From Acidobacteriota bacterium (GTDB lineage Bacteria > Acidobacteriota > UBA890 > WLXD01), in NCBI GenBank assembly GCA_965248695.1, contig CBDFKD010000002.1, forward strand, positions 2,688,001 through 2,752,000: a stretch of DNA of 64,000 bases, read 5' to 3'. This document shows, one piece after another, positions 2,800-36,384 of the stretch; within the stretch, counting starts at the first letter, position 1, and each line of letters starts with the position of its first letter. The translations under genes and the position numbers were made by a program. The notes beneath the pieces are model-generated. The model did no database searches. It was not told the origin of the DNA and saw only the letters and a list, made by a program, of their open reading frames with translations.

Positions 2800-2802
2800 T
2801 CA

Positions 2803-3031
2803 AGGGACCTGGATGTTCGCCCGACGCGAAAACCGCGAGGTTCGGTTGAGAGGGCTGTCCTGACAGGCGGACGCCGGCCCGAGAGGAGGGAGACCCGCGA
2901 ATCTCAGGGTTGAGTCATCCAGTCGCTCGTCCAACGAACGGGGCTCCCGACCGAGGCGCCGAGCTAGGTATCCGTGGGGCCCGGCCAACCGGACCTCGCG
3001 GTTTTCGCGCCGGAGCACTAGCTGGGCCCCT
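2803..3031. repeat. Intergenic element closed by a long inverted repeat (structured RNA or MITE/REP-like)
   Basis: 2825-2848 CGCGAAAACCGCGAGGTTCGGTTG pairs with 2986-3009 (23/24, the odd position is G-U); imperfect pairing extends outward. Confidence 0.65.
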
Positions 3032-4337
3032 AAGCGATTCCGTTGGTGACCGCCTGCTCGATTGCGTCACAGAAGCGATCGAGCTCCTCCAAGGTCGTGA
3101 AGACACTCGGAGAGATTCGGAGACCGGTGAACTCGGCGTGGTTGATTGCCACCGAGATGATGCGGTGCTCGTTCCAGAGCCAGGAGTTCAGAGCCGACGT
3201 GTCGATGCCTTCAACGCCGACGTTGGCGATGCCGGCGGCCTTGCCGGGTGTCTGGCTGGTGTTGAGGTAGACGCGATCGGAGAACGCCTGCAGGCGGTTC
3301 GCCCAGTGGTCCCGCAGGTAGACGAGGCGCGCTTCCTTGCGCTTGGCGCCGATGCCCTGGTGGAACGTCAATGCGTCGCCGATGGCGAGGTAGTTGGCCG
3401 CCGGATGGGTGCCGATCTCCTCGAACTTGCGGATGTTCTCGTCTTGCCGCTCGTTGGCCGCCATCAGCGGCCACAGATTCTTGATCTTGTCGCGGCGCAC
3501 GTACAGCAGGCCAGTGCCGTGGGGAGCAAACAGCCACTTGTGGAGGCTGGTGGCGAAATAGTCGCACTCCAGCTCGGCGATGGTGAAGTCGAAGTGGGCC
3601 AGCGAGTGGGCGCCGTCGACGATCACCGGGATGCCGTGTCGGCGGCCCATGTTGGCAACCTTGGCCACCGGCAGGATCTGACCGGTGAGGTTGATCATGT
3701 GGCACATGTGGATGATGCGGGTGCGCGGCGTGATGTTGCTCTCGAAAAGACGCACGATCTCGTCGTCGTCCTCGGCCGGCACCGGGACCGAGATCTGCTT
3801 GAGCACGACCCCCTCGCGCCGCTCGCGCTGCTTGTAGGTGGTGAGCATGCGGCCGTAATCCTGATTCGTGGTCAGGATCTCGTCACCCGCCTCGAGGTCG
3901 ATGCCGAGCTGGCAGATCTGCATCCCCTCGGAGGCGTTGCGCACCAGCGCCAGCTCCTCGGCGTCGGTGTCCCACTCCAGCGCCAACCGCTCGCGCACCT
4001 GTTCGCGCTGCGGCTCGAGGATCTGCCACATGGCGTACGTAGGCGAGGTGTTGGAGTAGTCGAGGTACCGCTTCATCGCATCCTGTACGGGCAGCGGCGA
4101 TGGGCTGACGCCGCCCGAGTTGAGATTGATGATGCCGGCCTCGGCGCTGAATGCCTGGCGCACCTCGTACCAGAAGTACTCGTCGTCGGCGAGCTCTGCG
4201 GCGCTGCCTGGATGGGCGGCGAGTCCTTCCGCCGCGGCCAGCGCGTGGGCATGCCGGGTGGGACTGAGAAAGGCGCCACCGTAGGCTGCTGCGGCCGGCC
4301 AAGAGAGGGCTCCGAGGAAATGACGCCGGTTGACCAT
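3030..4337 (-). CDS. Class V PLP-dependent aminotransferase (isopenicillin N epimerase-like) with Tat signal
   Basis: MVNRRHFLG Tat motif; INLNSGG; IVDGAHS; TSLHKWLFAPHGTG (PLP lysine). Confidence 0.9.
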   Translation of the reverse strand: MVNRRHFLGALSWPAAAAYGGAFLSPTRHAHALAAAEGLAAHPGSAAELADDEYFWYEVRQAFSAEAGIINLNSGGVSPSPLPVQDAMKRYLDYSNTSPTYAMWQILEPQREQVRERLALEWDTDAEELALVRNASEGMQICQLGIDLEAGDEILTTNQDYGRMLTTYKQRERREGVVLKQISVPVPAEDDDEIVRLFESNITPRTRIIHMCHMINLTGQILPVAKVANMGRRHGIPVIVDGAHSLAHFDFTIAELECDYFATSLHKWLFAPHGTGLLYVRRDKIKNLWPLMAANERQDENIRKFEEIGTHPAANYLAIGDALTFHQGIGAKRKEARLVYLRDHWANRLQAFSDRVYLNTSQTPGKAAGIANVGVEGIDTSALNSWLWNEHRIISVAINHAEFTGLRISPSVFTTLEELDRFCDAIEQAVTNGIA

Positions 4338-5882: not shown

Positions 5883-8078
5883 TTGAGACATCACGCCACC
5901 GGCACTGCGCGCCTGGCCGTCCGGCTCCTGGGCGCGCTGCTGCTCAGCTACCTGGCCGCCGGCGAGTCACTGGCGCAGAGCGCGGCCGATGTGGTGCCCG
6001 TCGACGGCGGCGCTCCGGCATGCGGGTTGGCCGTCGTGCTCAGCGGCGGCGGAGCACGAGGGATCGCGCACCTGGGCGTGCTGGAGGTGCTCGAAGAGAA
6101 CGGCATCCGCCCGGATTGCGTCGTCGGGGCGAGCATGGGAGCCGTGATCGGCTCCCTGTATGCCACCGGCCACTCGCTTGCCGCCATCGAGGTACTGCTT
6201 TCGGGGCTGAGCTGGCGCACCGTCTACATCGATTCCCACAACCGCCGGCTGCAACCGATCCTGCATCGGCTCGAGCGGCAGCGGTCTGGGCTCCGCCTCG
6301 GCCTCACCGCCGACGGGGTGCGGACGCCGCGCGGCCTGCTCAGCGACACGATGGTGAACCGCTTGCTGATCGAGCACCTGACGCCGGCCAACTTCGATGC
6401 CGGCCGGCGGTTCGATGCGCTCGCGATTCCGTTCCGCACGCTGGGAACCGATCTGCTCTCCGGAGAGCGCGTGGCACTCGCAGCCGGCGACCTGGCGCGC
6501 GCGGTTCGCGCCAGCATGTCGGTGCCGCTGGCGTACGCACCGGTGCCGTGGGAGGAGATGCTGCTGGTAGATGGGGGCCTGGCCGACAACGTCCCGGTGA
6601 GTCTGGCGACCGAGATGAGCGCCGAGTTCACGCTCGCAGTCGACGCCTCGACTCCGATCGACGCCGACGTCAACCCGGACCTGTTCGGCGTCACCGAGCG
6701 CGTCATCGATCTGCTCTTCGCCGAGACCAACAGTCGCTATGCGCAGGCGGCCGATCTGACCATCGTTCCTGACCTCGCCGGCCACAGCTTTGGCGACTAT
6801 TCACACATCGACGAGCTCATCGACGCCGGACGACACGCGGCCGAGGCGATGCTCGATCGTATTCCGGAGCGATTCAAGGGGCGTCAGCCGGAGATACGGA
6901 GTCCGGCCGATGAGCATATCTTCGGGCCGCGAGTGGTGCACGAAGTAGGCGTCAGCGGCAACCAGTACCTGTCCGACGAGGTCATCCTGCGCGAGTTCCG
7001 GGCGCGCGTCGGGAATCCGTTCGACTGGGATCAAACCCTCGCGAACCTCGATCATCTCTACGCTTCGGGGTTGCTGCAGAGCGCCTGGCTCGATCTGGCT
7101 CCGGTAGGAAACGACGGCATCCGGCTGCTGCTGTACGTGCAGGAGGAGTACCGACACACGCTCGATCTGGGCCTGGCGTACCAGAGCGACGATCAGGCAC
7201 AGGCGATGGTGCGGTTGGAGACTCGCGACCTACTGGGCGCCGGCGAGCGACTCCAGTTCGGCGGTGCGGCCAGCGCCAAGGATCTGTTGCTGGGAGTGCG
7301 ACTCCACGGTGAACAGCTTCTCGGAGCGCATGTCGGGTACCAGGTGGATGTCGAGCTACACCACGAGAGGCCCAAGGTCTTCGAGTCCGGACAGCATGTT
7401 TCGCGTGCCGAGTTCCGGCGGCGGCACGCGGCCCTGCGAGCGAATCTGCCGTTCGGCTTCAACCATCTCTTGCAGCTCGGAGTGCGCGCCGGCGAGGTGG
7501 AGACGGTCTCACGACTCGGAATTCCGCTGGACGCGGACACCCGCCAGCATCGCGTGCTGACCGCTAGCTATGTTTGGGACAACCTCAGCTCGCTAGCCGT
7601 GCCATCGCACGGGGCTCGCTACACGGTGCAAGCCGAGCGAAACTTCGAGGCGCTGGGTGGCTCCTTCCCGTACTGGCGAGTCCGCGTCGACGGCACCAGC
7701 GCGGCACAGCTCGGGAGGCTCAACCTCACGGGTCGGATTCTCTACGGCTACTCGTCGTCCTCGCTACCGGTATACGACCAGTTCCGGGTCGGCGGGCCCG
7801 AGCTAGTGCCGGGATTGGCGCGCGAGGAGCTCTGGGGAAACCAGGCGCTGGCGGCCTCGGCACAGGTGGGGCTCGATTTCGCCTCCGTGGCGCGCCTCTA
7901 CGCCCGGGTCGGCGTCGGTGGCGTCTGGGAGCACCAGGCCGATATCAGTCTGGACACGGCAATCGTCGGCGCCGGGCTGGGCCTCACGGTGACCACTCCC
8001 ATCGGGCCGCTGCAGCTCGACTACGGCTGGGCGGAGGAGAATCGAAACCGCCTCTACGTCGCCATCGGCTGGCAATAG
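5883..8078 (+). CDS. Patatin-like phospholipase with POTRA and Omp85-type barrel (PlpD/type Vd-like)
   Basis: LSGGGARG, GASMG (GxSxG), VDGG; POTRA-like VSGNQYLSDEVILREF; barrel end TPIGPLQLDYGW...YVAIGWQ. Confidence 0.9.
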   Translation: MRHHATGTARLAVRLLGALLLSYLAAGESLAQSAADVVPVDGGAPACGLAVVLSGGGARGIAHLGVLEVLEENGIRPDCVVGASMGAVIGSLYATGHSLAAIEVLLSGLSWRTVYIDSHNRRLQPILHRLERQRSGLRLGLTADGVRTPRGLLSDTMVNRLLIEHLTPANFDAGRRFDALAIPFRTLGTDLLSGERVALAAGDLARAVRASMSVPLAYAPVPWEEMLLVDGGLADNVPVSLATEMSAEFTLAVDASTPIDADVNPDLFGVTERVIDLLFAETNSRYAQAADLTIVPDLAGHSFGDYSHIDELIDAGRHAAEAMLDRIPERFKGRQPEIRSPADEHIFGPRVVHEVGVSGNQYLSDEVILREFRARVGNPFDWDQTLANLDHLYASGLLQSAWLDLAPVGNDGIRLLLYVQEEYRHTLDLGLAYQSDDQAQAMVRLETRDLLGAGERLQFGGAASAKDLLLGVRLHGEQLLGAHVGYQVDVELHHERPKVFESGQHVSRAEFRRRHAALRANLPFGFNHLLQLGVRAGEVETVSRLGIPLDADTRQHRVLTASYVWDNLSSLAVPSHGARYTVQAERNFEALGGSFPYWRVRVDGTSAAQLGRLNLTGRILYGYSSSSLPVYDQFRVGGPELVPGLAREELWGNQALAASAQVGLDFASVARLYARVGVGGVWEHQADISLDTAIVGAGLGLTVTTPIGPLQLDYGWAEENRNRLYVAIGWQ

Positions 8079-8132: not shown

Positions 8133-11100
8133 TCAGCTCGAGCCCGCCTGACGTAAGTGCTCCCGGATCGCTTCAATGAAGCGCGGCACCGTATCCCAGA
8201 CATCGCCGACGATCGGGTGCACGAACGGTTTCGGCCGCTGCTCGTGGAGCTTCATCAACGGCGCGTCGGGATCGACGTTGAACGACAGGATCACGGCGCG
8301 GTCGCCAATGTAGTCGACGTGTTGGGGGGCGCCAGACACCGCCAGGGCGATGATCAGCTTCGGGTTCACGGACACGCCGGTTTGCCCGATCTGACGATCG
8401 GCGGGAAGCAACTCGAGGTCTTGAGTCACCTTGCGTGTCGCCCCGACCATCACGCTGGACAGTCCCATCTCGTCGACAAGCAGCTGCCGGAGCGGCTCGG
8501 CGAGCTTGTCGATGCCCTCGCGGCCACCGGCTCCATAGCCGAAATCGATAATGATGTCAGCTTCCTGGAGCGTCTCCTGGGCGCCCGCGACGCTCGCCGC
8601 GAGTAGCGCCACCGGGTCCCGGCTGGCGTCGTAGGTCAACAGCGGCGTCCACAGGTAAACCTCCGGCTCTGACCGCTCTCGGCCGGCGCCGCGGCCGCCG
8701 TTCAGATCGAGCTCCACGCTCTGTCCGAGGGTCAGTACGCGCAGGCCGCCGTCCAGCGGCAGCTCGGCCTCGGCGCTAGCCGCACCGGCGTAGATTTGCG
8801 TCCCGACGCGCGCGCACTCACCCCCATTGGAGATGGAATCGACGTTGTGCCAGCTCCAGCAGCGACCTGCCTCCGTGCGCGCCACACCTCCGGCGACGAA
8901 GCGGGCGAACAGCTGTTTCGCCCAGCTCCCCGCAAGTAGCCATCGGGGCTCGCCGCGGTACATGGCCCAGAACTCCTCGAGCCACTCGAGATGACCCCGG
9001 GCGCTGAATCGCTCGGCGCTCGGAAGCTCGACCACATACAACCCCCGGGGGCTGCCACAAGCCAGCGTCGCCCCGGCAATGGCAGCGGCGGACACCTGAC
9101 CGAGATCGACCGGAACGACCACATCGAGCGCCATCCCGAGGCTGTCCGCCAGCCTGCCCGCCGTGCGCAGGTCGGCGCTCGCTCTGGTAGCCAGCTCGGC
9201 CCGGGCTGGCGGTAGAACGAGCACGCAGCATTGGCCAGGGGTATCGGGCTGCTCGCCCAGCGTCAGCAGGCGATGTTCATACGCAGCGACGGCCTCGGCG
9301 GAGGCGCCATCGAACTCCGCCACATCCATCAACACATCGACCGCGGCCTCAGGCGAGGCAACGCGGGAGATCTCGGCGCCGACACTCGCCACGCGCCGGC
9401 GCCGGTGTCGGACTCGGATTGCCGCCTGTCCTCCGGCGAGCTCGGCAATCGGAATGCGCTCGATCTCGACAGTGGATGCTCGCAGCCAGGACCGCAGGTC
9501 GGGAGCCGCGGTCCACGCGGCGCCCTGGCCCTTGGTGACAACACACGGCGTCCGAACCGAAAGCTGCTGACCAGCCCAGGACGCTGCGGTCATGTCGAGC
9601 ACGGACGCGGTTACGTCGCCCCAGCGGAGGTCTTCGATGTCGCTGTACACCTCGTGGCCAAGCGCCGCAGCCAGATAGGCGGGCACCGCTCCTTGACCGG
9701 TGTCTGCGGCACCCGTGCCACACAACACGAGATCAGGGTTCCGCCGGCGCAGGGCAGCGACAATGACACGGGCCACGAGCTCGCCGTCGTGCCGGCTCGG
9801 GACGGCGGCCCCCTCCACACCTGCAACCGTGTAGGCACTCACCTGGACGTGCGCCGGATCACGCTGCTTGAGTGCCATCGCTGCGGCCAGCGCCGCTTCA
9901 TCGGCCGGATTCGTACAGCGCAATGGCTCGGCGAACTCGTCGCCTGTGAGCCGGGGTTGTGGCGCCACGGCGGGAACCGGCTTGAGCAACACTGCGATCT
10001 CGACGGTGCGTTCGAGGTCGGCCTGGCGCCGGCGCTCCCTGAGCTGCTCGGGCACCAGACCCCAGCCCTCGGTCGCGGCGCCGGCCTCCTCCAGGGACTG
10101 TGCCCCGAGCTGTGTCTCCGGCGAGTAGCGGCCCTCTTCGAGGTACGCCAGCGCGATCTCGTAGCGGCGCTCGAGCATCGCGATGCTGGACAGGGCCCGC
10201 CGCACGTACAGCCGCGACACGCGCTCCAGACGTTCAGCGTAGGCGTCCGGTACCTGATGCCGTGAGGTCCACTCCAGGCGATAGAGCACCGCGTCGATCA
10301 CCTTGGTGAGCCCGGCGATCTCCGCCAGGCGGAAGAAGCACGGCTGCATTCCGACGTTGGCCCAGACGAGCTGACCGAAGCGTTCGACCGCGGCGTCGAC
10401 ATGATGCAGCAACGACTGCCGCGCCCGCTCGAGCTCGCCGACGAGCTCCGGGTAGGCGAGCTCGGGTTCGTCACCGGCGCCCGAGGTGTCGCGCTTCCAG
10501 GCCGGAAGAACCCGCTGGACGAGGTCCTTCAGCAGCAGGAACCGCTGCACCTCGTTGGTTCCTTCGTAGATGGTGAGCACGCGCGCATCGCGGCGCGTTT
10601 TCTCCACCCGGTGCAGCCAGGTCTGGCCTTCGAGCCCGCGCGCTCTCTCCATCCAGTCGATGCAATCGTGTACGGACTCGGTGCCGTAGTACTTGCCGAT
10701 CGCCGACTCCGTGCGCACGGACACGGTTCGTTTGTTGTCGAGCAATCCGATCATCTCGTAGGTGACCGATCCGGTTGCCACGGTCTCCTCGGCGACGCGC
10801 CCCAGCCAGAATCGCTCCAGCGGCCGCGCCGGTTGGCGCGGCGAATACTCGAAGCCGGCAGCCACCTCGCCGCGCAGATAGGGGATCGCGTCGTCAGCCA
10901 GCTCAGCGATGGTCGAGTGCGTCGTCACCGCCAGACCGGCTCTCCCTGTATTCAGCGTCTCGAGCGCGTTGACTTGCCCACGACCGCGGAAGCCGATGAT
11001 CGCTTCGTGGGGCACACGGACGTTGTTGAGCGACAACTCGTTGGTCGGTGAGCCTCGCTGGCCGAGCTTCTCCTCGTCGGCGCCCACCACCAGCCCCTCG

Positions 11101-14100
11101 GCGTGTCGATCGACCATGAACCCGGTTACGCTCTCGGGCTCGGTAAGTGCGTACAGCGCCATGCAGTGGCAGAAGCGGCCGTTCGTGATCCACATCTTGG
11201 CGCCGTTGAGCACCCAGTACTCGTAGAAGACGTCGTCCGAGGCATCGACGCGCAGCTGACCGATGTCGCTGAAGGGCACCTTGCGGTCGCCGTGCATGTA
11301 GAAGCGCATGCGCTCCGGCGTGTCCTTGTCGTAGTCGTACTCGGAATGATCGATGACAGCCGGTTCGGCGTCATCGGCGAAGCGATAGAGCAGCCGCCGA
11401 CCGTCGTAGTCATGCTCGAGGCGATCGGCATCGAGCAGATTGCGGCGCTCCTGCTCGCCCGGTTCATCGAGCCAGAACCACAGCACGCCATCGGCGTCCC
11501 GGTGCACGCGGCGGCGCTCGCCGCGGGCCGTCGTCTTGACCCCGCCGGAGTCGGATCCCGCCGTCGGCTCGGTGAGAGCGAACGCCGAGATGTAGCCGGC
11601 CGAGATGGTCTCGAGGAATTGCTCGTGGGCGCGCTGACGGCGCGGTAGCTCGTCGAGCCGTTGATCGATGGCAATGAGAAGATCGTCGATCAGCGTGCGC
11701 GCCTGGCAAACGTGTGCGCGGAGATCCTCGAGATCGCCCTGTTGTTGCGCGAGCGATGCCGCCTTGAAAGCGCGCAGGAAGCCACCGCCGATGTACTTCA
11801 GTACCATCGACCCGGCGACACGTTCCTTGACCAGCGCTCCAACCTCGGCCATTGCGGCCGCGATCGCGGCGACGCCGGGCCGCTTGAGCATCTTCAGCAA
11901 GCGGTCCAGCCCATCGCGAATGTCGCCGAGCACGTCCGGGTGTTCGCGCACCCGCTGGAGATCGGCGATCGCGCGCGGCAAGTCCTGGTACAGCCCGATG
12001 AGCGTCGGTGTGGTGCCGATGCTCGTGTTGCCCATGATCGCCAGCGACAGCGCCGCGTCGCCGTAGCGACCTATGAGGTCACACAGGATGTAGTACTCGG
12101 CCTTCGAGACCCCCTCGCCGCCAAGTCGGGTCTCGATCGGCATGCGCATGAAGCCGCGTCGGACCATGAAGTCGAGGTCCTCGTCAGGAATCAGGTGAAG
12201 CTTCTCGAGATAGCGGCCGTAGGGCAGCCCGTCGAACCTCGGGGCGACGAACCGGGCGCGCAGCTCGGCTTCGAGCGCCTCCCTATGGTCGGCGAGGCGC
12301 GTGTCGTTGGCCACGATCTCGGGCACACAGCGCGCCGATGTCGCATCGAAGCCGGCGTGCAGCCACTCGCCTGACCGGTGTGTCCGATCGACAGTGCACA
12401 CGCTGTCGTATGGTTCTGCGTCCGGGATCGGAGGCGCGATGAGCTCGCCGTCGGTAAGCAGCTCGTCGCCTGCCGCCAGCGTCGACGCAGCCAGGCCTGC
12501 CGCCTCGATCCGGGCGGGTATCTCGGCGCTGAGCTTATCGAGCACCAGGCGTGTGGCCTCGACCATCGATTCCATCGGCAGGCCGGCATCGATGCGCCGC
12601 ATCGTCCGTATCAACAGGCTGCGGGCGGCAAGCAGCTGGATCACCATTCCGCCCACGGCATGCTTCACCAGGTCCCCGGCAAAGGCATCGATTCCGCCCG
12701 ACCAGTTCTCGACCTGCTGGCTGGCCGCCTGGTAACGAGCCGCTGGCTGGCGAAGCAACGGGTGCTTGCTGCTGCGCTCCATCCACTGCCGCTCGGCATC
12801 ACCAGACGGGATCAGGGGACCCCCTTTTCGAGCGGCCGTGAGTCGGCGGCGTCCGACCTCGACGCGCAGCGCGTCGTCGTGCCCCAGCAGGAATCGGAAG
12901 ACAGCGCTGTCGCGGTAGTACTTGGCGATATCGTCATCCTCCGAGAACGCCGTACCGCCAAACAACTGGCCGGTGTTGTAGCTGAAGGAGCCGATCCCGG
13001 GGCCGAACGCTTCGCTGGCCACCACCTTGCGCACCGCAATCCCGGTCCAGCCGTCGCCACCGCCCGGATCGACCAGTGAGACCGATTCCAGCACGAACCG
13101 GCGCGCTTCCATCTCGGCGAGCATCTGCTTGACGGCGCCGAACTTGGCGATCGTGTCACGGCCGGCCTCGTCCTCGAACGTCCCGGGAAACTGCACCCGC
13201 CCGGAGGCGTGGTCGCGGGCGCGCTGCAGCAAGTACCGGCCGGATCCGCGCACGCTGGCCAGGTAACCACCCAGCGCCACGCTGATCACCGGCGCCCAGG
13301 ATTCCCCGGCCGCCGGATCCTCGAGCGAGACGTCGTCGGCCGCCGCCGACAGATCGACGACGCGCTCTGCGGGCACTCTGATTCCGGCACCACGGAGCCG
13401 ACGGATACGCGCACCTACGAGCCCCACCGCACCGACGTCCTCGCATGCCAGACCCGCATCGTCGGCATCCACGAGGAAGCCCTGGGCACCGACGACAACC
13501 AGGTATCGATCTGCGAGTGCGGTCGGAACGAAGTCCGAGCACACGTCGAGCTCGTAGTCGCCGCTCTCGAGCAGCCGCACAGCACGCACCCCACCATGGA
13601 CGGTCGCCACCAGCGTCGACGCCGTCTCGAGCTCCGCGTCGGGAGCACCGGCCAGGGTCAGCAGATCGATCGCCAGCAGATGCGATGCGGCCACCGTCGC
13701 CATGGCCGGGTCGGTGGCCGCGAGCTCTTCGAGCAGCACATCACTGCGCCCGTACCCGGCAGCGTAGGGGCGCGCGGCGGCGAGCTGTGTCCTGAGCCAA
13801 TCCGACTGCGGCGCCGACAGCGGCTCGGCCTTCTCCAGAGCCCGCACCGCGTGACTGTCGAACAACCGCGCGCATCCATCCCGTACGATCTCGCGCCACG
13901 ACTCGAAGACGCACGGTTGGGCCTCGAGCTGCCGCCACTCAGTGGCCGAGAGCTCGGCGACAGGCTCGCGCTCGGCGCCTGCGATGGCACCCTCGCCCTC
14001 ATCGATTGCACCGCACACCGCCAACACCGCAGCGAAGTGATGCTCCTCCAGCTGCCGCGCCAGGACGTCGGCCCAGAAGAACCGTCGCGCTGCAACGTGC

Positions 14101-16750
14101 CCCCGCATCTGCTCCAGGCGCTCAGCGGCATCGGCCCAGACCGGGTCCAGCAACTTCGGCACGATCCCGGCGCCCGCCGGCTCGACTCCCCCGTCCCAGG
14201 CCTGACCGGCATCGGCGAACGCGTCGCGCGCTGCGGCCAGCCATGCGCCCAGATGCTTCCGTCGTGCCTCGTCAAGCGCCAGGGGCGAACGCGCGAGGTC
14301 GTCTCGATAGGCGCGTAGTGCCACACGCGAGCGCTCCAGTTGCGCCGAAACACGGCGGCGAACGGGGGCCGGGGGAAGGCCGTCGGCGTTGTTCCTAACG
14401 GCTTCCGCCAGCTCAGACTGGAAACCCGGTTGTGAGCCCAGGCGCGGCTGTGGCTCGGGACGATCGACGAGGTAAGCGTGCAGCTCCTGTTGCGCCGGCG
14501 TATAGGTCTGGTAGATGAGGCGTTGCTGCGTGGCGCGGCTCCAGTGCACGTCGTCAGTGGCTCGCCAGCAAGTCTCGCACTTGATGCAGTTGTCGAAGTT
14601 GACCACCACACCCGGCTGCCCCGCCGGGTTGCGTCGCACCTCGTACACCTTCGCCGGACAGATGCTCCACAGGGCCGACGACGACAGGCTGGACCGTTTT
14701 GCGATGTCCGTCGGCCACATCACCTTGATATGGGAGTGTTCACCCGCCTGGTAGGTGATGGTGCTGAGCTTCGCCTCGTACGTCGTGGTGATGGCGACGC
14801 GATGATCGTCGAGACGTATGCGCTCTCGATTCTCGTCCAGCAGGCGCGCAATCGGCTGCTCGGTGAAGCGTCTTGGCTCCCAGCGCAGCACCGCGCGCTG
14901 GAACCATTCGGTAACCGCCTGCTTGGCGCTGGTGGCCGCAAAGGCGAGGCCGACAGCACCGGCCACGACGAAGTCCCATAGCGAGACGCAGCCGGCGATA
15001 TGGCGCGCCGATGCCGCCAGCTTGTCGGCCAGGTCGGTGTCGTCGTTGGCGTAGACTTCGCTGAACGCGCTCGCCACCGCACCGCCGAAGCGCTTCCAGT
15101 ACCACTTGAACAGCCAGGGCGCCCGGCCTGACGACTCGCCTCCCGCCATGACGCGGTACACAGCACGCAGGCGGGATCCGTTCGGCCCCGGCGCTTCGGC
15201 AACTCCGGCGCCTGCGGCGGCTTCATCAACTTCGGAGACGCCCACGCCGACGCCCGAGCCGGCAGGTACCAGAGCCCCGACGGTGTTCCACAGCACACGC
15301 AGCAGGGTGGCCGGGGTCATCACGGAGCGCGCCAGCGCGCCGACGCCGAGGGCGCGGAACAGGGCTCGACTGTCCCCGACGATCGATCCGGAACCGGCTG
15401 AAGCAACGTGGCGCGCCAGCCGCACGAGGCCCCAGTAACGCGTCCACGTCCCCGAGTCTGGCCGCGACAGGATGTAGGCGGCGTTGTTCACCAGATCGAG
15501 TTGCCGCTCGAAGAAGAACTGCGTCCGCTCGACGTACGCCGGCCAGTCGCGCAGATGCTGTACGTTGCGGTAGTAGTGACTCGACTGCACCGTTTTCAGG
15601 TAGGTGCTGCGCAGAGCCTGCTCCGTGAACGGCGACGCTGACCCACCGGCGCGACGCCCTGGCCGCCCCGAATCGGCGGCGATCTGGCGCACTGCGCGGG
15701 CGAAGTACAATCCCATGGCGGTGGCCGGGCCGGTGAAGTTCGGATAGGGGAAGTCGAGCCCGATGCCGCTGGCAGCGCCGCCGATTGCGAGGCCGTCGTC
15801 GACCAGGCGCGGGATTTCCCGGAGGCCGCCGCCGCGGATGATCTTGGCGCCATAGGAGGTGAGCTCGCCACCGTCGATCATCCGGGCGATCTCCGGCAGT
15901 CCCTTGAACCACTCCACCAGGATGTTGTGATCGCCGTCGAACTGCTGCCGCAGGTTGTCGAGCGGCAACACGAACCCCAACGACAGGCTGTCGCGGTTGG
16001 TGTAGACGAAGCCGCCCATGTTGAGCCGCGCCGTGCGGCCCTTGCGCGTCGCGTTGCGCAAGAGCATCTCGAGAGCCATTCCCTCGCCCGGCGCCAGCCC
16101 GAAGCGCTGCTCGATCACTTCCTCGGGCAGCGAGATCACCTCCTTGACCCCCTGCAAGAAGTGCGGCGCGCCCGCGGCATGGTCGGTCGTCACCGGCTGC
16201 TCGTAACCTTCCTGGGTGACCACTCGTAACCTTCCTGGGTGACCAGATGCGAGGCGTCGCCTTCGGCCAGGAACACGACGTCGGCGTACGCCGGCCCGCG
16301 CTCGGTTTGCACGCCAATGACCTGGCCTCGATGTCGGATCAGGCTCTGTACGGTGGTCTCGCAGGCGAGCATGACGCCGTGCTCGCGCGTTACCTCGGCC
16401 AGGCAGCGGTCGTAGACGGGCCGCAGGACCGTGTAACAGGACCCGAACGCGTCGGGAGACCGCAGGCTGGCGCCGACCAGGCTGTGACCGTTGTACAAAT
16501 AGGCGCCGCGCTCCACGAGTCGACGCTCGTACGGCGCCGCGGCGACGATGTCACCACCGAACGCGTCCGGATGCTCGAGGTTCTCGGAAAAGTAGACCGC
16601 GCCCGACCAGTTCTCGGCCCCGGGGAAAATACCCGCCTCGCACAGCAGTACGGAGAACCCGGCTCTGCCGAGGGCCATCGCGGCGGTCGCACCCGCGGGG
16701 CCTGCCCCCACGACGATTACGTCGAAGCGATCGGGGCCCATCATGGTCAT
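8133..16750 (-). CDS. Giant fusion: FixC-like FAD oxidoreductase, FixX ferredoxin, two acyl-CoA dehydrogenase modules, EtfB and EtfA; frameshifted by a 23-bp tandem duplication at 16200-16245
   Basis: DVIVVGAGPAG and GVKEVI (FixC); CPAKVY...CIKCETC (FixX); RVQFPG...FGAVKQMLA and AFALTEPTAGSD, LNGAKMWITNG, KLGQRGSPT, IYEGTNEVQR (ACAD); NPADEAAL, PDLVLCG (EtfB); QIGQTG.SVNPKL...SGAPQH (EtfA). Confidence 0.88.
16200..16245. repeat. Perfect 23-bp tandem duplication
   Basis: CTCGTAACCTTCCTGGGTGACCA at 16200-16222 and 16223-16245. Confidence 0.95.
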
Positions 16751-16823
16751 GACGTGTATAAGAAAGGAGCAAGGAAACAGAATGAGAGGTATGTATATGC
16801 GTCAATGGTACGCGAGAGGTCAG

Positions 16824-18389
16824 ATGCCGACTAGCGAACGAATCACTGCAGACGCCAGGCAGCACCGATTCCCGTGGCCCGCCGCCACCGCACTCGCCGT
16901 GGCAGCCGTGGCTGCGATGCCAGGCACACCACTGGCCCAATCCAACGACGGTCGACAGCTGCTGGTGGGGGCGACGATTGTCGACGGGACCGGAACCAGC
17001 GCCTACCGCGGCGAGGTGTTGATCGACGGCGATCGGATCGTAGCCGTCGGAGCCGCGGGAGCATTGCGAGTATCAGACGCCGGACGGACGGCGACGGTGG
17101 TCGATCTGGCCGGCCTGGTGCTGGCACCCGGGTTCATCGACATCCACAACCACTCCACCAACAGGCTGCAGGACGACCCCCTGGCAACGACTCAGATCGC
17201 CCAGGGCGTGACGACAATCTTCGTGGGCGCCGACGGCTCGTCGCCGTGGCCGATCGGTGAGTACCTGGAGGGTATCGATACGCTGTCGCCGGCATTGAAC
17301 GTCGGCACCCTCGTGGGTCACGGAACCGTTCGGCGCGCGGTGCTGGGCGACGACTACCGACGCGAGGCGAGCGCCGCCGAGGTGACCGCGATGGCGGCCC
17401 GGGTGCGGCAGGGGATGGCGGACGGAGCCTTCGGCCTCTCGAGCGGTCTGGAATACGACCCCGGCTTCTACTCCACCACCGAGGAGCTGATCGAGCTGGC
17501 CAGCAAGGCCGGCGAGCTCGGCGGCTTCTACATGTCGCATGTGCGCGACGAGGAAGGCGGCCTCCTCGACTCCATCGACGAGGCGCTGCGCATCGGCGTC
17601 GAAGGCGAGCTGCCGGTGCAGATCTCGCACATCAAGGCCGGCAACGCCGAGGTGTGGGGCCAGGCGTCGGAGGTCTTGGAGCGCATCGCAACAGCACGCG
17701 TCTACGGGCTCGACGTGACCGCGGATCAGTACCCCTACACCGCCTGGCAGTCGGGGCTCGGCATCGTTGTGTCCTCACGACGCTTCGACGATCCCGACGA
17801 TGTAGCGGCGGGGCTGGCCGGCGTCGGCGGCGGCTCGCGGCTGCAGATCGTCAACTACGACGCCGATCCGACGGCGCACGGCATGCGGCTGAGCGAGATC
17901 GCCGCCCGCGAGGGCAAGAGCGAGGTCGAGATGTACATCGAGATCATGGCCAACGGCGGCTCCGGCGTCATCGGACACACCATGACCGAGGAGGACGTCG
18001 ATGTGTTCATGGCATCGCCGCTGGTTATGACCACCAGTGACGGCGGGGTGGGCAGCGCGCACCCACGCGGCGCCGGAGCGTTCGCTCGCATCCTCGGGCG
18101 CTACCTGCGAGAGCGGGAGATGATGTCGCTGGAGCACGCCGTGCACCGTGGTACCAGGATGCCAGCCCGGCGACTCGGCCTCGAGGATCGGGGTGTCATT
18201 CGCCCCGGTGCGATCGCCGACCTGGTGGCGTTCGACGCGGCCACCGTGACCGACAACAGCACCTTCACCGATCCGCTGCAGCAGGCCACTGGCGTGCATG
18301 GCACCTGGGTGGCGGGTCAACGGGTATGGGCGGACGGACAGCCGACCGGCGCCCGCCCCGGTAAGGCACTGCGACACGGCCCTCGATAG
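16824..18389 (+). CDS. N-acyl-D-amino-acid deacylase family amidohydrolase
   Basis: LAPGFIDIHNHS, GHGTVR, SSGLEYDPG, SHVRDE, SHIK, HPRGAG, GAIADLVAFD; ATG 16824 after GAGAGG. Confidence 0.9.
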   Translation: MPTSERITADARQHRFPWPAATALAVAAVAAMPGTPLAQSNDGRQLLVGATIVDGTGTSAYRGEVLIDGDRIVAVGAAGALRVSDAGRTATVVDLAGLVLAPGFIDIHNHSTNRLQDDPLATTQIAQGVTTIFVGADGSSPWPIGEYLEGIDTLSPALNVGTLVGHGTVRRAVLGDDYRREASAAEVTAMAARVRQGMADGAFGLSSGLEYDPGFYSTTEELIELASKAGELGGFYMSHVRDEEGGLLDSIDEALRIGVEGELPVQISHIKAGNAEVWGQASEVLERIATARVYGLDVTADQYPYTAWQSGLGIVVSSRRFDDPDDVAAGLAGVGGGSRLQIVNYDADPTAHGMRLSEIAAREGKSEVEMYIEIMANGGSGVIGHTMTEEDVDVFMASPLVMTTSDGGVGSAHPRGAGAFARILGRYLREREMMSLEHAVHRGTRMPARRLGLEDRGVIRPGAIADLVAFDAATVTDNSTFTDPLQQATGVHGTWVAGQRVWADGQPTGARPGKALRHGPR

Positions 18390-21975: not shown

Positions 21976-24900
21976 CTAGCGCGCCAGGCGGTCCAGGAGG
22001 CGCTCCAGGAGCCGACCAAGCGGTCCCGCAACCGGGTGATCGACTGGCCTGTCGGTGGCGTATGCCGCGCCGGCCCCGGCCTCGGACTCGGAACGGGGCT
22101 CGTACACCTCGTAGCCTCTCACGCTCCGCGATGGTGCCCCGCCCACCGGCATGCGGTACGCCTCATCCCGATCCGACCACCGATGCAGCACCACATCCCC
22201 GCCGCGACGAACGAAGCGCCGCAGTGCCCTCTGTGCCGCCTCCGAGCTCACCGCGCTCACCTGGCCGAGATCGTCCCCGGCGCTGGCCGTGGGAATGAGC
22301 ACGATCTGCGTGCCTTCCGGAATGCCGTCGCGCATATCCTGTGGCGGATGCACGAACAGGCTCACGCCTCGGATGTAGCCACGCGCCTGCAGCGACTGCT
22401 CCACTGTCGCCTCACCCCACGGCTCGTACGCCTTGTAGATCCGCGCCCTCGGTACCGTGGGCAACGTGCCAGCCTCCGCATCCACCACCACGCGCCGGGC
22501 CGGCTCGGTGATGTAGTGCGGACCTTCCGGCATGTTGGCCGCCCGGGCCTCGGCGCTCCGCGTTGCCGGCACCTGGATGCACGCCATCACCGGGCCCGAT
22601 GCCCCCGCATCGTTGAACGACTGGAGCGTGTAGCAGTTGACCGCCCCTGCCACTGCCTCGGTGTCCAGATACATCTCCCGGTCCGCCGCCAGCATCCACA
22701 CCACATCGTCCCGAACCAGCACGTAGCCGGTCTCGTTGTTCGCCTGGTCGCGCCACTTCACCCTCACCGCACCGGAGTTGCGCACCGCCAGCTGCAGCCG
22801 CTTCGGTGGTGCCGGTCGGTTCGCCGCCCCGGCTCCCAGCTGCACCACGTTGTGGAACCGGTTGCCGAAGCGGATCTTTGTGCGCCTCTTTGGACCGTCG
22901 TTGCTGTCCACCGTGTACAGAACCTGTCCGTCCCCGGTGCGGGCATTGAGGATCTGCACCCACCCTGCGTCCGGGCTCGGGGTCCAGTCGCACCCGGCCA
23001 GCGTGTCCACCCGGAAGCTGCCGGCACCTCCGGCAGGCGTGAAGCTCTGGGTGATCATCGAGGGGGCGAACGTGCACCGGGCTGCCCTCTGGTTCACGGT
23101 GAACGCCTCGCCGGCGATCGTTGCCGTGCCACGTCGCGCCACGCTCCTGGGATTCTTCTGCACCGCCAGCGTCACCCTTCCCGGACCGGTCGCATCGATC
23201 GCCCGTGCCGCACTCAGCACCTGGATCCAGCTTCTGTTGCTGCTCGCACTCCAGGGGCAGTTGTTGCCGTTGGAGCTCACCGCCACCGATACGCTCGTTG
23301 CCTGGAAGCTCACGCTCGCGGTTGTGGAGCCGATTCCGGTGCTACATGCCACCACCGTGATCGTCGCCGTGGCGGTGTTGGACGCCACTCCAGCAGACAC
23401 CGCCTGATAGGTGAACGAGTCGGTGCCGGTGAACGATCCCGTCGGGGTATAGGTGAACGTGCCGTCGGAGCTCAGGCTCAGGTTGCCGTTGGCAGTGCTC
23501 GTCACCAGCGATGCCGTCAAGCCGATGCCCGAGTCGTTGTCCAGCACGCCGTTCTGTACCAGCGGATCGAATTGCACCGTCGAGTAGGCATCGTTGCTCG
23601 CCACCGGCGACACCGAGATCGTTACCGTGGCGTTGTTGGAGTCGTCCAACCCGTCGTTGGCTTTGTAGGTGAACGCGTCAGTACCGGAAAACCCCGTGTT
23701 CGGCGTGTACGTGAAGCCGCCATCGGTACCCAGCCCCAGGGTGCCGTTGCTCGGGCCACCTCCCACGAGCAGTGCGGTGAGCGTGTCGCCTTCCGAGTCC
23801 GTATCGTTGGCCAGCACTCCGGTCGCTGCCGGCACCGTCAGCGCCGTGTTCGCCGTGGCCGTGTAGGTGTCGTTGGTCGCCACCGGGGCGCTGTTGGGCA
23901 CCACCGTGAGCGTTACCGTGGTGGTATCGGAGTCGTCGATACCGTCGTTGGCCTTGTAGGTGAACGTATCGGTGCCGAAGAAGCGGGTGGTCTGATTGCC
24001 ACCGGCGGTAAACCCCGCGTTGGGGGTATAGGTGAACGATCCGTCGTCGGTCAACGCCAGCATCCCGTTGGCCGGGCCGGACACGAGGTTGGCGGTCAGC
24101 GCGTCGCCATCGGCGTCGGTGTCGTTGGCCAGCACACCTGTGTTCACACCAACGGTCAACGTCGTGGCCTCGCGGGTCGTATAGCTGTCCGGGTCGGCCA
24201 CCGGGGCATTGTTAGACGCGACCCTGATCGTCACCGTCGTGGTAACGGAGTCGTCGGCGCCGTCGTTGGCCCTGTACGTGAACGTATCGGTGCCCAAGAA
24301 ACGGCTGGTCTCATTGCCACCGGCGGCAAACCCGGCGTCGGGGGTATAGCTCATCGCGCCGTCGGCGGCCAACACCAGGTTCCCGTTGATCGGGCCGGAC
24401 ACGAGCTTGGCGGTCAACGAGTCGCCGTCGGCGTCGGTGTCGTTGGCCAGCACACCCGTGCTCGCGGCAACCGCCAGCGGCGTGTTCACCCGGGTGCTAT
24501 AGCTGTCCGGGTTGGCCACTGGAGCGGTGTTGCCCGGGACGGCTACAGGCGGTCCCTGGTAGCGCAGTACCTGCTGCGTGAACAGGCTCGACACGTACAG
24601 GTTGTTGTAGGGACCGAACGCCAGCCCGGTAGGCGCGCTCAGCCCACCAGAGCCCGCCGCCACGAACGCGTCGATGAACGCATCCGTCGTTCCGTTGTAG
24701 CGCAGTACCTGGCCCGTCGTTCCGTTGTAGCGCAGTACTTGGTCCGTAAGTGCGCTCGACACGTACAGGTTGTTGTCGGGACCGAACACCAGTCCAACCG
24801 GGCCGTTCAGCCCACCAGAACCCGCCGCCACGAACACGTCGATGAACGCCCCCGTCGCTCCGTTGTAGCGCAGTACCTGGTTCGTGGAGAAGCTCGACAC

Positions 24901-25287
24901 GTACAGGTTGCCGTCGGGACCGAATACCAGCCCTCGGGGCAAATCCAGCCCACCGGAGCCCGCCGCCACGAACACGTCGATGAACGCCCCCGTCGTTCCG
25001 TTGTAGCGCAGTACCTGGTCCGTAAGTGCGCTCGACACGTACAGGTTGTTGTCGGGACCGAACGCCAGCCCGCCAGGCGAAGCCAGCCCACCGGAGCCCG
25101 CCGCCACGAACACGCCGATGAACAGCCCCGTCGCTCCGTTGTAGCGCAGTACCTCGTTCGTGTCGCCGCTCGACACGTACAGGTTGCCGTCGGGACCGAA
25201 CGCCAGCCCTCGAGGCAAATCCAGCCCACCGGAGGCCGCCGTCACGAACGCGTCGATGAACGCCCCCGTCGTTCCGTTGTAGCGCAT
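21976..25287 (-). pseudogene. 5'-truncated repeat-rich surface protein: NHL/Vgb-like propeller repeats, Ig/cadherin-like repeats, BACON-like and FN3-like domains
   Basis: ~44-aa YNGTTGAFIDxFV..GSGGL..PxGLxFGPDxNLYVSS repeats; GVLANDTDADGD repeats; WSASSNRSWI; ORF begins exactly at an IS end with no signal peptide. Confidence 0.85.
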
Positions 25288-26129
25288 GACCTGCCCCCCA
25301 ATAATCGGGCCAGTCTGAGAGTTAGGATTTGAGGCTCTCAGGATGGCTCGGGAAGGGGGAAGAATGGGCGCGGAAGCGGTACACTGTAGAGCAGATCATC
25401 GCCAAGCTCAGGGAGGCAGAGATCGAGCTAGCGAAAGGGGCCAAGACACCGGAGGCATGCCGCAAGCTGGGAATCAGCGAGAACACGTATTACCGGTGGC
25501 GCAAGGAGTACGGTGGACTGAGGGTGGATCAGGCACGGCGACTCAAGGAGCTGGAGCGGGAAAACGGCCGGCTCAAGAAGTTGCTGGCGGAGACGATGCT
25601 CGACAACGCCATCCTCAAAGAGGTTTCGTCGGGAAACTTCTGAGCCCGGCACGACGGAGCCGGGCAGTGCACCACGCACAGCAGTCGTTGGGTGTGTCCG
25701 AGAGGCGAGCCTGCAGAGTACTGGGCCAGGTGCGCTCGACGCAGCAGTATCGGCCCAAGGTGCCGCAGGAGGAGAAGGCACTGGTGGAGCGGATGACCCA
25801 GCTGGCGACGCAGTACGGGCGCTATGGGTACCGGCGGATCACGGCGCTGTTGGTACGTGAGGGGTGGCGAGTGAATCACAAGAGGGTCGAACGGTTATGG
25901 CGTCGTGAGGGGCTGAAGGTACCGAAAAAGCAGCCCAAGCGCGGACGCTGGTGGCGCAATGATGGATCGTGCGTGCGGCTGCGGCCGGAGAGGAAAGATC
26001 ACGTCTGGGCCTATGACTTCGTGCACGAACGAACTCACGACGGGCGAGCGTTTCGTCTACTGACGATCGTGGATGAGTACACGAGAGAGTGCTTGGCAAT
26101 CGATGTAGCACGCAGGCTCAACTCCGAGA
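25287..26129 (+). mobile_element. IS3-family element, left part only (IRL, orfA, partial orfB)
   Basis: TGACCTGCCCCCCAATAATCGG end; orfA RKRYTVEQIIAKLREAE (extra G after ATG 25364); orfB YGYRRI, WAYDFV, stopping at LNSE. Confidence 0.92.
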
Positions 26130-26138
26130 AAGCAGCCC

Positions 26139-27542
26139 GAGTTATTTGCAAATGTTGTGGATCGGTGGATTTGTTCAGGCGGCGTCTTCGCTAGCGATCA
26201 GGTGAACTCCATCGACGAATGTGGCGCCCTCGAGTACGAGGGCAGTGAGGTGAGGAGCGTTGATGCGGCGCCATCGTTGCTGTGCCATCTCCAGGAGCTT
26301 GAATGCCATCGTCAGCGCCTTGGTGCGTGAGCCGGCGCCCTTGGTGACGCGTTGTCTCAGGCGTACGGTGGCGAACGCCGACTCGATCGGGTTGGCCGTG
26401 CGCAGATGAACCCAGTGGTCGGCGGGGAAGTCGTAGAACGTCAGCAGCTTGTCGGAGTCGCGTTGCAACGACGCCACGGCCTTGGAGTACTTGGCGCCGT
26501 AGTCGGCTGCGAACCGCGCCATGCCCTCCTGAGCATCCTCGCGCGTTGGCGCACCGATGATCTCGTGCAGCGCGCGCTTGGCTTTGGCCTGCAGCCGCCT
26601 CGGTAGCTTGTCGAGCACGTTGCCAAGCCGATGCACCCAGCATCGTTGCTCTCGAGTCTGGGGCCATACATCCCGCACCGCCGCCCAGAACCCCAGCGCC
26701 CCATCACCCACTGCCACGAGCGGCGCCCGCATGCCTCGACGCTTCAGCTCCCGGAGCACGAACGCCCAGCTCTCGGTGCTCTCTCGATACCCGTCCTCGA
26801 CCGCGATGAGCTCCTTGGTTCCGTCCGGCAAAACGCCCAGGATCACCAGCGTGCACAGCCGATCATCCTCGAGTCGAATGTTGAAGTGCACACCGTCCGC
26901 CCACACGTATACGTACTGCTTGGTGGACAGATCCAGCTTCCGGAATGCCTCGTACTCCGTGCTCCAGGCGTTCGTCAGCCGGCAGATCGCCGATGCCGAC
27001 AGCCCGCTGGCTTCCTGTCCCAGTAAGATCGGCAGCGCCTCCTTGAAGTCGCCCGTCGACAGGCCCCGCAGGTACAGCACCGGCAGCACCTCCGCCACCT
27101 TCGGCGAGCGCCGCATGTAGGGCGGCAGGATCCGACTGCTGAACCGCTGCCTCAGTCCCTGCTCGTCGAGCCGCTTGTCGTTGACCCGTGGCGCGGCTAC
27201 TTGCACCGTCCCGCACCCCAACGTGATCTTGCGTGCGCGAGCCCGACCGTTGCGTACCACTTGCCGACGGCCGGCTTCATCCAGTTGCCCGGCGTGGCTC
27301 TGGATATACTCCTGAACCTCCCACTCCAGTGCTGTTGCCAGCATCTGCAGCGCGCCCTGCCGGGCGAGCTCATCGACGTCCAGTGTCAGCTGTCCTTCCT
27401 CCGCGTCCGATCCACCGATAATCTTGAGCACGGGTGGCGTCTCCTTCCCGGCCTCCACAGCCGGCTGCTGGTTGTTGATGATCCCAGCGAAGGTTACGCT
27501 GCCTTTCTTTTTCCTCCCATCCACAACTTCCGGTTATATCTC
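26139..27542 (-). mobile_element. IS256-family element, copy 1 (1404 bp), no target duplication
   Basis: Transposase GLSTGDF, YVWADG, QRCWVH, RTANPIES; imperfect IRs GAGTTATTTGCAAATGTTGTGGAT / ATCCACAACTTCCGGTTATATCTC. Confidence 0.95.
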
Positions 27543-36380: not shown

Positions 36381-36384
36381 GGAG

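Follow-up and report, generated by a model that had tools for sequence, protein, structure and literature searches.

A single-chain fusion of ETF-quinone oxidoreductase, acyl-CoA dehydrogenase and ETF modules, found as a damaged gene copy in an Acidobacteriota genome

In mitochondrial and bacterial beta-oxidation, acyl-CoA dehydrogenase (ACAD), electron transfer flavoprotein (ETF) and ETF-quinone oxidoreductase (ETF-QO) are separate proteins that pass electrons from acyl-CoA to quinone. Here we describe a bacterial gene that encodes all of them in one chain. We analyzed a window of 64,000 nucleotides from an Acidobacteriota bacterium (GenBank assembly GCA_965248695.1, contig CBDFKD010000002.1, positions 2,688,001 to 2,752,000), where the listing of open reading frames (ORFs) gives two on the minus strand of 8133–16750, one of 186 codons (16190–16750) and one of 2,696 codons (8133–16223). 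From N- to C-terminus they encode a FixC flavoprotein, a FixX-type [4Fe-4S] ferredoxin, a dead ACAD (ACAD-1), an active-looking ACAD (ACAD-2), EtfB and EtfA. We conclude that this region is a damaged copy of a widespread, conserved bacterial gene of ~2,860–2,900 codons that is apparently undescribed.

The fused chain shares its four catalytic parts and their cofactor motifs with the separate proteins. It differs in being one chain of ~2,900 amino acids in the order ETF-QO, dead ACAD, ACAD, EtfB, EtfA, in which ETF cannot diffuse, and in having no EtfB AMP zipper signature (0 of 71 aligned sequences), an additional dead ACAD and about 600 residues of linkers and insertions. The Thermotoga maritima EtfABCX/FixABCX complex (7KOE) is similar in that the fused FixC matches 7koe_C, and EtfA and EtfB resemble 7koe_B and 7koe_A in both sequence and fold. 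However, the fused chain lacks the bifurcating zipper signature, has an ACAD pair inserted, and joins FixC to FixX through a 220-residue insertion with a hydrophobic helix. YdiO-YdiQRST and CaiA-FixABCX of Escherichia coli have the same component set, and the fused chain partially matches NCBIfam models that we take to represent these proteins (PRK10015, PRK10157, PRK12341, PRK03354, PRK11916 and PRK03363), with scores far below the cut-offs. Those systems are five separate operon genes, whereas the fused gene is monocistronic.

For the ACAD pair, the nearest comparisons are VLCAD, ACAD9 and long bacterial ACADs (8PHF, 2UXW, 3B96, 3OWA, 2Z1Q), with which ACAD-2 and its tail align over ~735–790 columns of a model described below (TMt 0.61–0.74). 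VLCAD/ACAD9-type enzymes are homodimers, whereas the partner of ACAD-2 appears to be the dead ACAD-1 of the same chain, and ACAD-2 has inserts of ~110–130 residues. The mycobacterial ChsE1-ChsE2/FadE28-FadE29 enzymes are heteromeric ACADs with one active site per pair. As there, one partner in the fused family lacks the catalytic base, and it retains C-domain motifs that may contact the partner's FAD. In the fused family, however, the partners are joined to each other and to ETF and ETF-QO, and there is no steroid-degradation context at the loci examined. The likeness to such heteromeric pairs, which the first-pass annotation had proposed, holds as an analogy.

Fusions of some of these parts have been described. 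The monomeric EtfB-EtfA of Sulfolobus acidocaldarius has the same EtfB-then-EtfA order in one chain; according to PMC12042025, it is a stand-alone bifurcating ETF with two FADs, and the ACAD and FixCX genes are nearby but unfused. A butyryl-CoA enzyme of Fusobacterium nucleatum with EtfA domain II (Bystrom & Wolthers 2024, as cited in PMC12042025) unites part of the same set, an ACAD-type enzyme and the FAD domain of ETF, and as cited there it has no EtfB, EtfA domain I or ETF-QO module. Other ETF-domain fusions seem to exist. An Atlas search, whose scores were all ≤0.87 and hence give leads only, returned clusters of 531-residue ACAD plus ETF_alpha proteins, mostly from Bacillota, and clusters of 825-residue ETF_alpha plus HpaB proteins, mostly from Acidobacteriota (scores 0.82–0.85). 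We found no description of a complete FixC-FixX-ACAD-ACAD-EtfB-EtfA fusion in the literature searched, which left out most subscription journals; the first-pass annotation had named none either. The parts and the chemistry are textbook; the novelty lies in finding the entire ACAD, ETF and ETF-QO path in one natural chain.

To describe the family, we searched for homologs among proteins of 1,482–4,718 residues and scored 8,000 candidates. There were 447 matches at E ≤ 1e-3, all of at least 1,482 residues. Among the matches listed (120 of the 447), lengths ranged from 1,632 to 3,036 residues, most had the same Pfam set, and there were two main size classes (~2,800–3,040 and ~2,470–2,590 residues), the shorter one mostly from Verrucomicrobiae by source name. 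The source names place the family in at least four phyla (Acidobacteriota; Planctomycetota/Gemmataceae; Verrucomicrobiota, as Verrucomicrobiae; Gemmatimonadota), with generic protein names such as "acyl-CoA dehydrogenase family protein", "electron transfer flavoprotein-quinone oxidoreductase" and "FAD-binding protein".

A genome scan gave 21 loci, of which 18 are from Acidobacteriota/Acidobacteria, one from an "uncultured bacterium", one from Gemmataceae and one from Planctomycetota. All ten loci that span the gene have a single open frame, of 2,855–3,053 codons. Contig ends truncate the remaining 11, in which the frame is open over the whole part present. The first-pass annotation had read the region as one chain, which stops between the modules of its relatives would have contradicted, and no such stops occur in the ten; its module order and approximate coordinates also fit the Pfam and NCBIfam domain positions. 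Because there are hundreds of full-length homologs, and because the ratio of nonsynonymous to synonymous divergence (dN/dS) is 0.17 against a related locus (L001, frame 9497–18190), the long frame is not a product of chance.

We also searched the ACAD-1 region against cluster representatives of 1.84 billion proteins and found 115 matches at E ≤ 1e-3, 81 at 1e-10 and 27 at 1e-30. In matches of at least 2,000 residues this region lies ~360–1,050 residues from the N-terminus; those where it is further in are full-length, and those where it is nearer have a shorter N-terminus. The short matches are probably fragments. Since the matches are few and specific to the family, we regard ACAD-1 as the hallmark of the fused architecture.

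There are also shorter relatives (P0125–P0136, P0170, P0205). Homologs of 2,000–2,330 residues begin near the FixX part and have no FixC, either because the gene calls are truncated or because these are true forms whose FixC is separate. P0205 (1,727 residues) carries two ACADs in tandem, with an ACAD9/VLCAD C-domain, and lacks ETF.

We compared the modules in three alignments: A1, with 15 sequences including the window; A6, with 11 sequences; and A2, with 70 full-length rows and one ETF-module row (71 in all). Residue numbers refer to P0001, the protein of the 2,696-codon ORF, or to P0004, an intact homolog of 2,897 residues. For FixC, residues 8–418 of P0004 match 7koe_C, the FixC of T. maritima EtfABCX, at E = 1.4e-31, and the GxGxxG motif is present in 69 of the 70 full-length rows; in the window this domain is cut by a frameshift. 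The four FixX cysteines (Cys1 and NCxKCExC) are present in 70 of 70 rows in the one-cluster pattern of ETF-QO, and Fer4_ETF_QO (PF05187) scores 26.1 bits against a cut-off of 24. By NCBIfam the FixC part is not a member of an equivalog or subfamily, with 95.2 against a cut-off of 466 for PRK10015 and 73.8 against 610 for PRK10157.

The insertion between FixC and FixX contains a hydrophobic 19-mer that ranks third or higher by hydropathy in 14 of the 15 A1 sequences (not in P0016), with Kyte-Doolittle values of 1.80–2.53. Its helix is a possible membrane anchor. We set aside a true transmembrane span, as a single span would place FixC on one side of the membrane and FixX on the other, and a monotopic or buried helix appears more likely. 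A complex prediction of the FixC-FixX module (A1 residues 1–750) with EtfA domain II (2715–2897) gave a score of 0.00, which, with controls not run, speaks neither for nor against binding.

A dead ACAD followed by a canonical ACAD with large insertions was what the first-pass annotation had seen, and the alignments agree. ACAD-1 was not detected by Pfam, and a family profile matched solved VLCAD at E = 3e-7. In the VLCAD alignment the Glu of IFEGT falls on a Leu in ACAD-1. Across the 70 full-length rows this column holds L, I, G, V, W, F, A, Y, T or N, and E/D in none, while RxQF.. and GQxxGG are kept in all 70. We take these two motifs to be contacts to the FAD of the neighboring subunit, as in the MCAD structure. 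No TEPxAGSD-like flavin motif is visible in ACAD-1 in A1, and two verrucomicrobial sequences there entirely lack its N-terminal and middle parts. Judged by its sequence, ACAD-1 is an ACAD homolog but not an active member.

ACAD-2 has a TEPxAGSD-type motif and IYEG[TA]NE, which includes the catalytic Glu, in 70 of 70 rows each. Its middle and C-terminal domains score above the Pfam cut-off (64.1 and 87 bits), and the N-terminal domain just below it (22.4 against 22.9). The nearest solved sequences are CarC (6fah_C, E = 3e-34), MmgC, SBCAD, Bcd, ACAD9 and VLCAD, with 5lnx and 2jif among the PDB entries. The inserts seen in A1 are in the N-terminal and middle domains. We modeled ACAD-1, ACAD-2 and the tail of L001 with AlphaFold2 (1,196 residues, 30-row alignment, model mdb6991b3322f), with a mean predicted local distance difference test (pLDDT) of 87.4 and a predicted template modeling score (pTM) of 0.87. 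Foldseek matched the model to ACAD9 (8phf_A, TMt 0.74), VLCAD (3b96, 0.71) and 3owa (0.70), and 2Z1Q was also among its matches. The high pTM suggests that the ACAD-1 and ACAD-2 halves are packed with confidence. We infer that these two pair within the chain as a pseudo-heterodimer that has a single active site.

The ETF module was also modeled (658 residues, pLDDT 86.2, pTM 0.79), and Foldseek matched its EtfA to 7koe_B (TMt 0.69) and its EtfB to 1t9g_S (0.82) and 6fah_B (0.78). Going by this model, the module of intact members is a complete EtfB-EtfA. EtfA also aligns by sequence with 5ol2_A, 7koe_B and 1efv_A, and an EtfB family profile matches 1o94_C (E = 9e-25) and 6fah_B (2e-20). The domain-II FAD site of EtfA is present in all 71 rows (G[AG][TS]RK and SG[AS]PQH) and matches human and bacterial EtfA position by position. 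In A1, EtfB shows the lowest conservation of all modules.

We looked at the zipper loop of EtfB, which tells canonical from bifurcating ETFs, and at an Arg of EtfA domain I. According to PMC8958531, the zipper loop is D-G-[DE]-T-[AG]-Q in 216 bifurcating ETFs and D-D-D-x-N-Q, which holds AMP, in 449 canonical ones. The domain-I Arg, at the second FAD, is given there for 447 of the 449 canonical proteins, and bifurcating ETFs are said to conserve it as well. None of the 71 rows has the bifurcating signature, scored as D-G-[DE]-T-[AG]-[QH], and none has the canonical (group 1) one, scored as D.D.NQ. In 13 rows the loop is missing altogether, planctomycete and gemmatimonadete members have a degenerate form of it, and 29 rows, mostly acidobacterial, show D-T-x-Q. 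HMMER aligned the single Asp of the family to the first Asp of DGDTAQ in CarD, which leaves D-T-G-Q-G-A. A putative domain-I Arg (in "TRIYAG") is at the aligned position or one before it in 16 of 71 rows, and one position later in 12 more (28 of 71); the window has Gln. This Arg was matched to the ETF Arg by motif likeness only, as a profile of EtfA domain I against 4kpu_A gave E = 0.82 and ended before it. For the fused family, Foldseek and phmmer scores are no guide to whether an ETF is bifurcating or canonical. Since the second nucleotide site is degenerate, bifurcation is unlikely, and the fused enzyme is most likely not bifurcating; here we depart from the first-pass annotation, which had called it possibly bifurcating.

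We consider it fairly likely that intact members are single-chain, membrane-associated, non-bifurcating acyl-CoA:quinone oxidoreductases and that the window holds a recently damaged copy of such a gene. The N-terminal part would be an ETF-QO-like module, with the FixC FAD domain, the ~220-residue insertion, whose hydrophobic helix may hold it at the membrane, and one FixX/ETF-QO-type [4Fe-4S] cluster. A linker of ~200 residues, probably helical, would lead to ACAD-1, whose catalytic base and flavin motif seem to be gone and whose two presumed contact motifs for a partner's FAD are retained. ACAD-2, a putative VLCAD/ACAD9-like dehydrogenase with all catalytic motifs, would oxidize the presumed acyl-CoA substrate at the sole active site of the pair. 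In the fused EtfB-EtfA, the ETF base would be tethered to the tail of ACAD-2, leaving the intact domain II at the free C-terminus. Electrons would then pass from acyl-CoA to the FAD of ACAD-2 and on to the FAD of EtfA domain II, a swinging head that would take single electrons and hand them to the N-terminal [4Fe-4S] cluster, and from there to the FAD of FixC, which would reduce (mena)quinone at the membrane.

Two lesions set the window copy apart. The first is a perfect 23-bp tandem duplication, which is all that separates the 186-codon and 2,696-codon ORFs. It is private to the window, as the 14 other A1 proteins read through at the same site. Codons 1–176 of the short ORF (residues 1–176 of P0004) and the long ORF from its ninth codon align collinearly with P0004, and after the duplication the short ORF has ten out-of-frame codons and then a stop at 16190–16192. 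Removing one copy gives 176 in-frame codons plus 2,696 minus the eight duplicated, or 2,864 codons. The first-pass annotation had counted 2,864 residues without this copy, and the repeat finder, the DNA and the arithmetic all agree. The second lesion is in EtfB, where the window copy alone among the 15 A1 and 11 A6 sequences is without 24 residues (P0004 2317–2340). In the DNA this is an in-frame 72-bp deletion between short direct repeats, GGC(T)GCCGT, with its junction between 9806 and 9807. In the model it would take out helix 75–85 and strand 90–95 of the Rossmann-like core, where pLDDT is 80–96. The first-pass annotation had the fused architecture right but missed this second lesion, and likewise how widespread the family is, with the 447 long homologs in at least four phyla described above.

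Both lesions look like replication slippage. Apart from them there is no further stop across the 2,864 codons of the window copy. Compared with L001, to which its protein is 89% identical, the window copy has a dN/dS of 0.174 in the long ORF (dN 0.052, dS 0.30) and of 0.072 in the first 176 codons; in the linker the ratio is 0.65, compared with 0.08–0.30 in the other segments. This low dN/dS against an intact relative means that selection acted until recently, which suggests that the inactivation is recent, provided the lesions are not assembly errors. With the gene split by the duplication, and a helix and a strand gone from the EtfB core through the deletion, the window copy is probably non-functional, a young pseudogene to judge from its sequence. 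The duplication is absent from the relatives, and for this reason we rejected programmed frameshifting at this site.

Two side observations came out of these alignments. The dS between the window and L001 is uneven, 0.10–0.20 in the linker, ACAD-1, ACAD-2 and the tail and 0.40–0.57 in FixC, FixX, EtfB and EtfA; recombination between lineages could account for this. An apparent gap at P0004 residues 912–920 (L001) is a nine-residue linker insertion private to P0004 and not a loss in the window, as other A1 sequences are also without it.

Several points weigh against reading the gene as an acyl-CoA:quinone oxidoreductase with a recently inactivated copy in the window. Every NCBIfam score falls far short of its curated cut-off (for FadE, 155 against 600), and no module is an equivalog of a named enzyme. 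No beta-oxidation gene adjoins the giant gene at any locus examined, which leaves its role and its substrate, including the bulky acyl-CoA that the first-pass annotation had suggested, without support from context. The role of RxQF.. and GQxxGG as partner contacts is assigned by likeness to MCAD, a pTM of 0.87 is indirect support for the ACAD interface, and the absence of a zipper signature does not prove that no nucleotide is bound. The reverse reaction, enoyl-CoA reduction, is thermodynamically as plausible. The large ORF might still be translated from a GTG that follows a Shine-Dalgarno-like AGGAAGG, and both lesions could be assembly errors.

Of these, errors in the sequence are the strongest alternative, although we still think them unlikely. 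In this case the gene would be intact in the organism, whatever its function, and the duplication and deletion would come from assembly or polishing, or from a minority variant. The low dN/dS and the absence of any other stop fit a gene that was selected until very recently, and the sole identical database protein comes from one 5.76 Mb contig, so a single assembly carries both lesions. However, an exact 23-bp tandem copy and an in-frame deletion between direct repeats have the look of slippage and not of base-calling error. Gene decay also appears to be ongoing nearby, as the surrounding 25 kb is full of insertion sequences (ISs) and gene stubs.

Somewhat less probable is that the same fused machine runs in reverse, as a quinol-dependent or otherwise reductant-dependent enoyl-CoA reductase like CaiA-FixABCX or YdiO-YdiQRST, with enoyl-CoA as electron sink. 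The four carrier phyla are, we presume, menaquinone users. The potential (E0') of menaquinone is about -74 mV and that of the acyl-CoA/enoyl-CoA couple about -10 mV, and because of these values acyl-CoA oxidation with menaquinone would be slightly uphill. The NCBIfam matches point the same way, as the FixC part is closest to PRK10015 and PRK10157 (FixC), the first of which we take to be the subfamily of YdiS from E. coli, and there are also partial matches of the ACAD and EtfA parts to PRK12341, PRK03354 (CaiA), PRK11916 and PRK03363 (FixB). However, their scores are all far below the cut-offs, ACAD-2 has ordinary dehydrogenase motifs and a fold closest to VLCAD and ACAD9, and no carnitine or anaerobic-respiration genes are nearby at the loci examined. 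The direction itself cannot be read from the sequence.

We find it quite improbable that the duplication made a working two-piece enzyme, with an N-terminal FixC piece of 186 residues and a piece of 2,696 residues that starts at GTG 16223. The duplication did place AGGAAGG (16230–16236) 6 nt before this GTG (16221–16223), with the stop of the upstream ORF ~30 nt downstream, which resembles an arrangement for translational coupling. However, the cut falls within the FAD domain of FixC, none of the ten spanning loci is split there, and the deletion in the EtfB core would persist in a two-piece enzyme. Least probable of all is an EtfABCX/FixABCX-type enzyme, bifurcating or confurcating, that has its own ACAD and couples NADH, ferredoxin, quinone and acyl-CoA. 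In its favor are the kinship with bifurcating systems (7koe FixC and EtfA, 6fah CarC/CarE, 5ol2) and the partial likeness of the acidobacterial D-T-x-Q to D-G-D-T-A-Q. Against it are the zipper and Arg counts above, the low conservation of EtfB, and the scores of canonical ETFs against the family, which are as good as those of bifurcating ones.

Returning to the acyl-CoA:quinone oxidoreductase, a broader proposal is more tentative, and we would put it a little short of even. In it, a self-contained, membrane-anchored chain of ~315 kDa replaced the diffusible ETF shuttle in at least four phyla. It would carry the whole path from acyl-CoA to quinone with a one-active-site ACAD pseudo-heterodimer, and its ETF base would no longer have the AMP or FAD site found in nearly all other ETFs, because the fusion made the zipper unnecessary. 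If the reading is right, such a chain has fixed stoichiometry and holds together partners that normally meet briefly, and would thus be a good object for cryo-EM and kinetics of the swing of the ETF flavin domain between donor and acceptor. It would also be a natural example of an ETF with neither an AMP nor a second-FAD site, and of a dead ACAD kept for a structural role in enzymes other than the mycobacterial ones for steroids. It would bear on how lipid catabolism is read in Acidobacteriota, Planctomycetota, Verrucomicrobiota and Gemmatimonadota, where the source names are only generic. The window itself is more modest, with two private lesions in an IS-rich region and probably a young pseudogene.

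The coordinates of all features are in the table. An amidohydrolase is upstream of the giant gene in the window and in L003, L005 and L008, and a patatin-Omp85 protein is downstream in the window, L005 and L018. At L001, ORFs on both sides match the window neighbors by size and position alone. Two planctomycete loci have unrelated housekeeping neighbors and neither the amidohydrolase nor the patatin-Omp85 protein. A lipase beside an acyl-CoA enzyme may or may not be meaningful.

Table. Features of the fused gene and its surroundings, in window coordinates.
Feature	Position	Strand	Basis or remark
Perfect 23-bp tandem duplication	16200–16245	-	Tandem Repeats Finder: period 23, 2.0 copies, 100% matches, score 92; copies head to tail
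FixC/ETF-QO-type FAD-binding N-terminal part (GxGxxG), first 176 codons	16223–16750	-	Pfam DAO/FAD_oxidored/Pyr_redox_2; NCBIfam PRK10015/PRK10157, residues 4–174
FixC-like flavoprotein, C-terminal part (P0001 residues 1 to ~262)	15438–16223	-	NCBIfam PRK10015/PRK10157, residues 16–239
Insertion of ~220 residues between FixC and FixX, no family match	14784–15437	-	A1 alignment
Conserved hydrophobic helix inside the insertion	14934–14990	-	Hydropathy
FixX/ETF-QO-type ferredoxin part	14520–14768	-	Pfam Fer4_ETF_QO, P0001 residues 486–561
Four Cys codons, C-x23-C-x2-C-x2-C	14658–14660 and within 14568–14588	-	
Linker of ~200 residues, probably helical, no Pfam match	13908–14519	-	A1; falls outside both AlphaFold2 models
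ACAD-1, degenerate, without catalytic Glu	12855–13907	-	Family profile against PDB
ACAD-1 motif FRFLLGH	12879–12917	-	
ACAD-1 motif RVQFPG	13182–13199	-	
ACAD-1 motif GQLFGGTA	12948–12971	-	
Helical extension after ACAD-1, long helices	12435–12854	-	AlphaFold2 model of L001 equivalent, helices 325–441, pLDDT mostly >85
ACAD-2, active-looking, two large insertions	10485–12434	-	Pfam Acyl-CoA_dh_N 1336–1406, Acyl-CoA_dh_M 1668–1735, Acyl-CoA_dh_1 1747–1898 (P0001)
ACAD-2 motif LTEPTAGSD	11550–11576	-	
ACAD-2 motif KMWITN	11181–11198	-	
ACAD-2 motif IYEGTNE	10551–10571	-	
Helical tail after ACAD-2, resembles VLCAD/ACAD9 C-terminal domain	10038–10484	-	Foldseek of AlphaFold2 model
EtfB-like module, without 24 core residues in the window	9327–10037	-	Pfam ETF, P0001 residues 2143–2236
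EtfA-like module, domain I diverged, FAD domain II well conserved	8136–9326	-	Pfam ETF_alpha, P0001 residues 2552–2636
EtfA motif GATRKV	8427–8444	-	
EtfA motif SGAPQH	8319–8336	-	
Stop of the giant gene	8133–8135	-	
Patatin-Omp85 protein	5883–8078	+	Convergent, downstream of giant gene
Amidohydrolase	16743–18389	+	Divergent, upstream of giant gene
Mutator-family transposase ORFs	26175–27524, 40750–42099, 48360–49565		First two share a 300-nt stretch, 100% identical
IS3/rve-type ORFs	25343–26194, 28733–29590, 36333–36878, 44721–45743, 47679–48350		
Inverted arms, 660 nt, 91% complementary	IS3/rve-type ORFs 25343–26194 and 28733–29590		
Sulfatase stub beside ISs	39790–40452		
TonB Plug stub beside ISs	35956–36408		

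Further from the giant gene, the window has an IS-rich stretch with gene stubs at 25343–49565. There are also two very large repeat proteins on the minus strand (21976–25287 and 30201–35141). One has Big_9, Cadherin_4 and Cadherin_5 repeats (four stretches each) and NHL; the other has four Big_12 repeats and Calx-beta, with a 300-nt direct repeat, 80% identical, at 34082–34711. The GC skew is -0.22 to -0.26 at 30–34 kb of the window.

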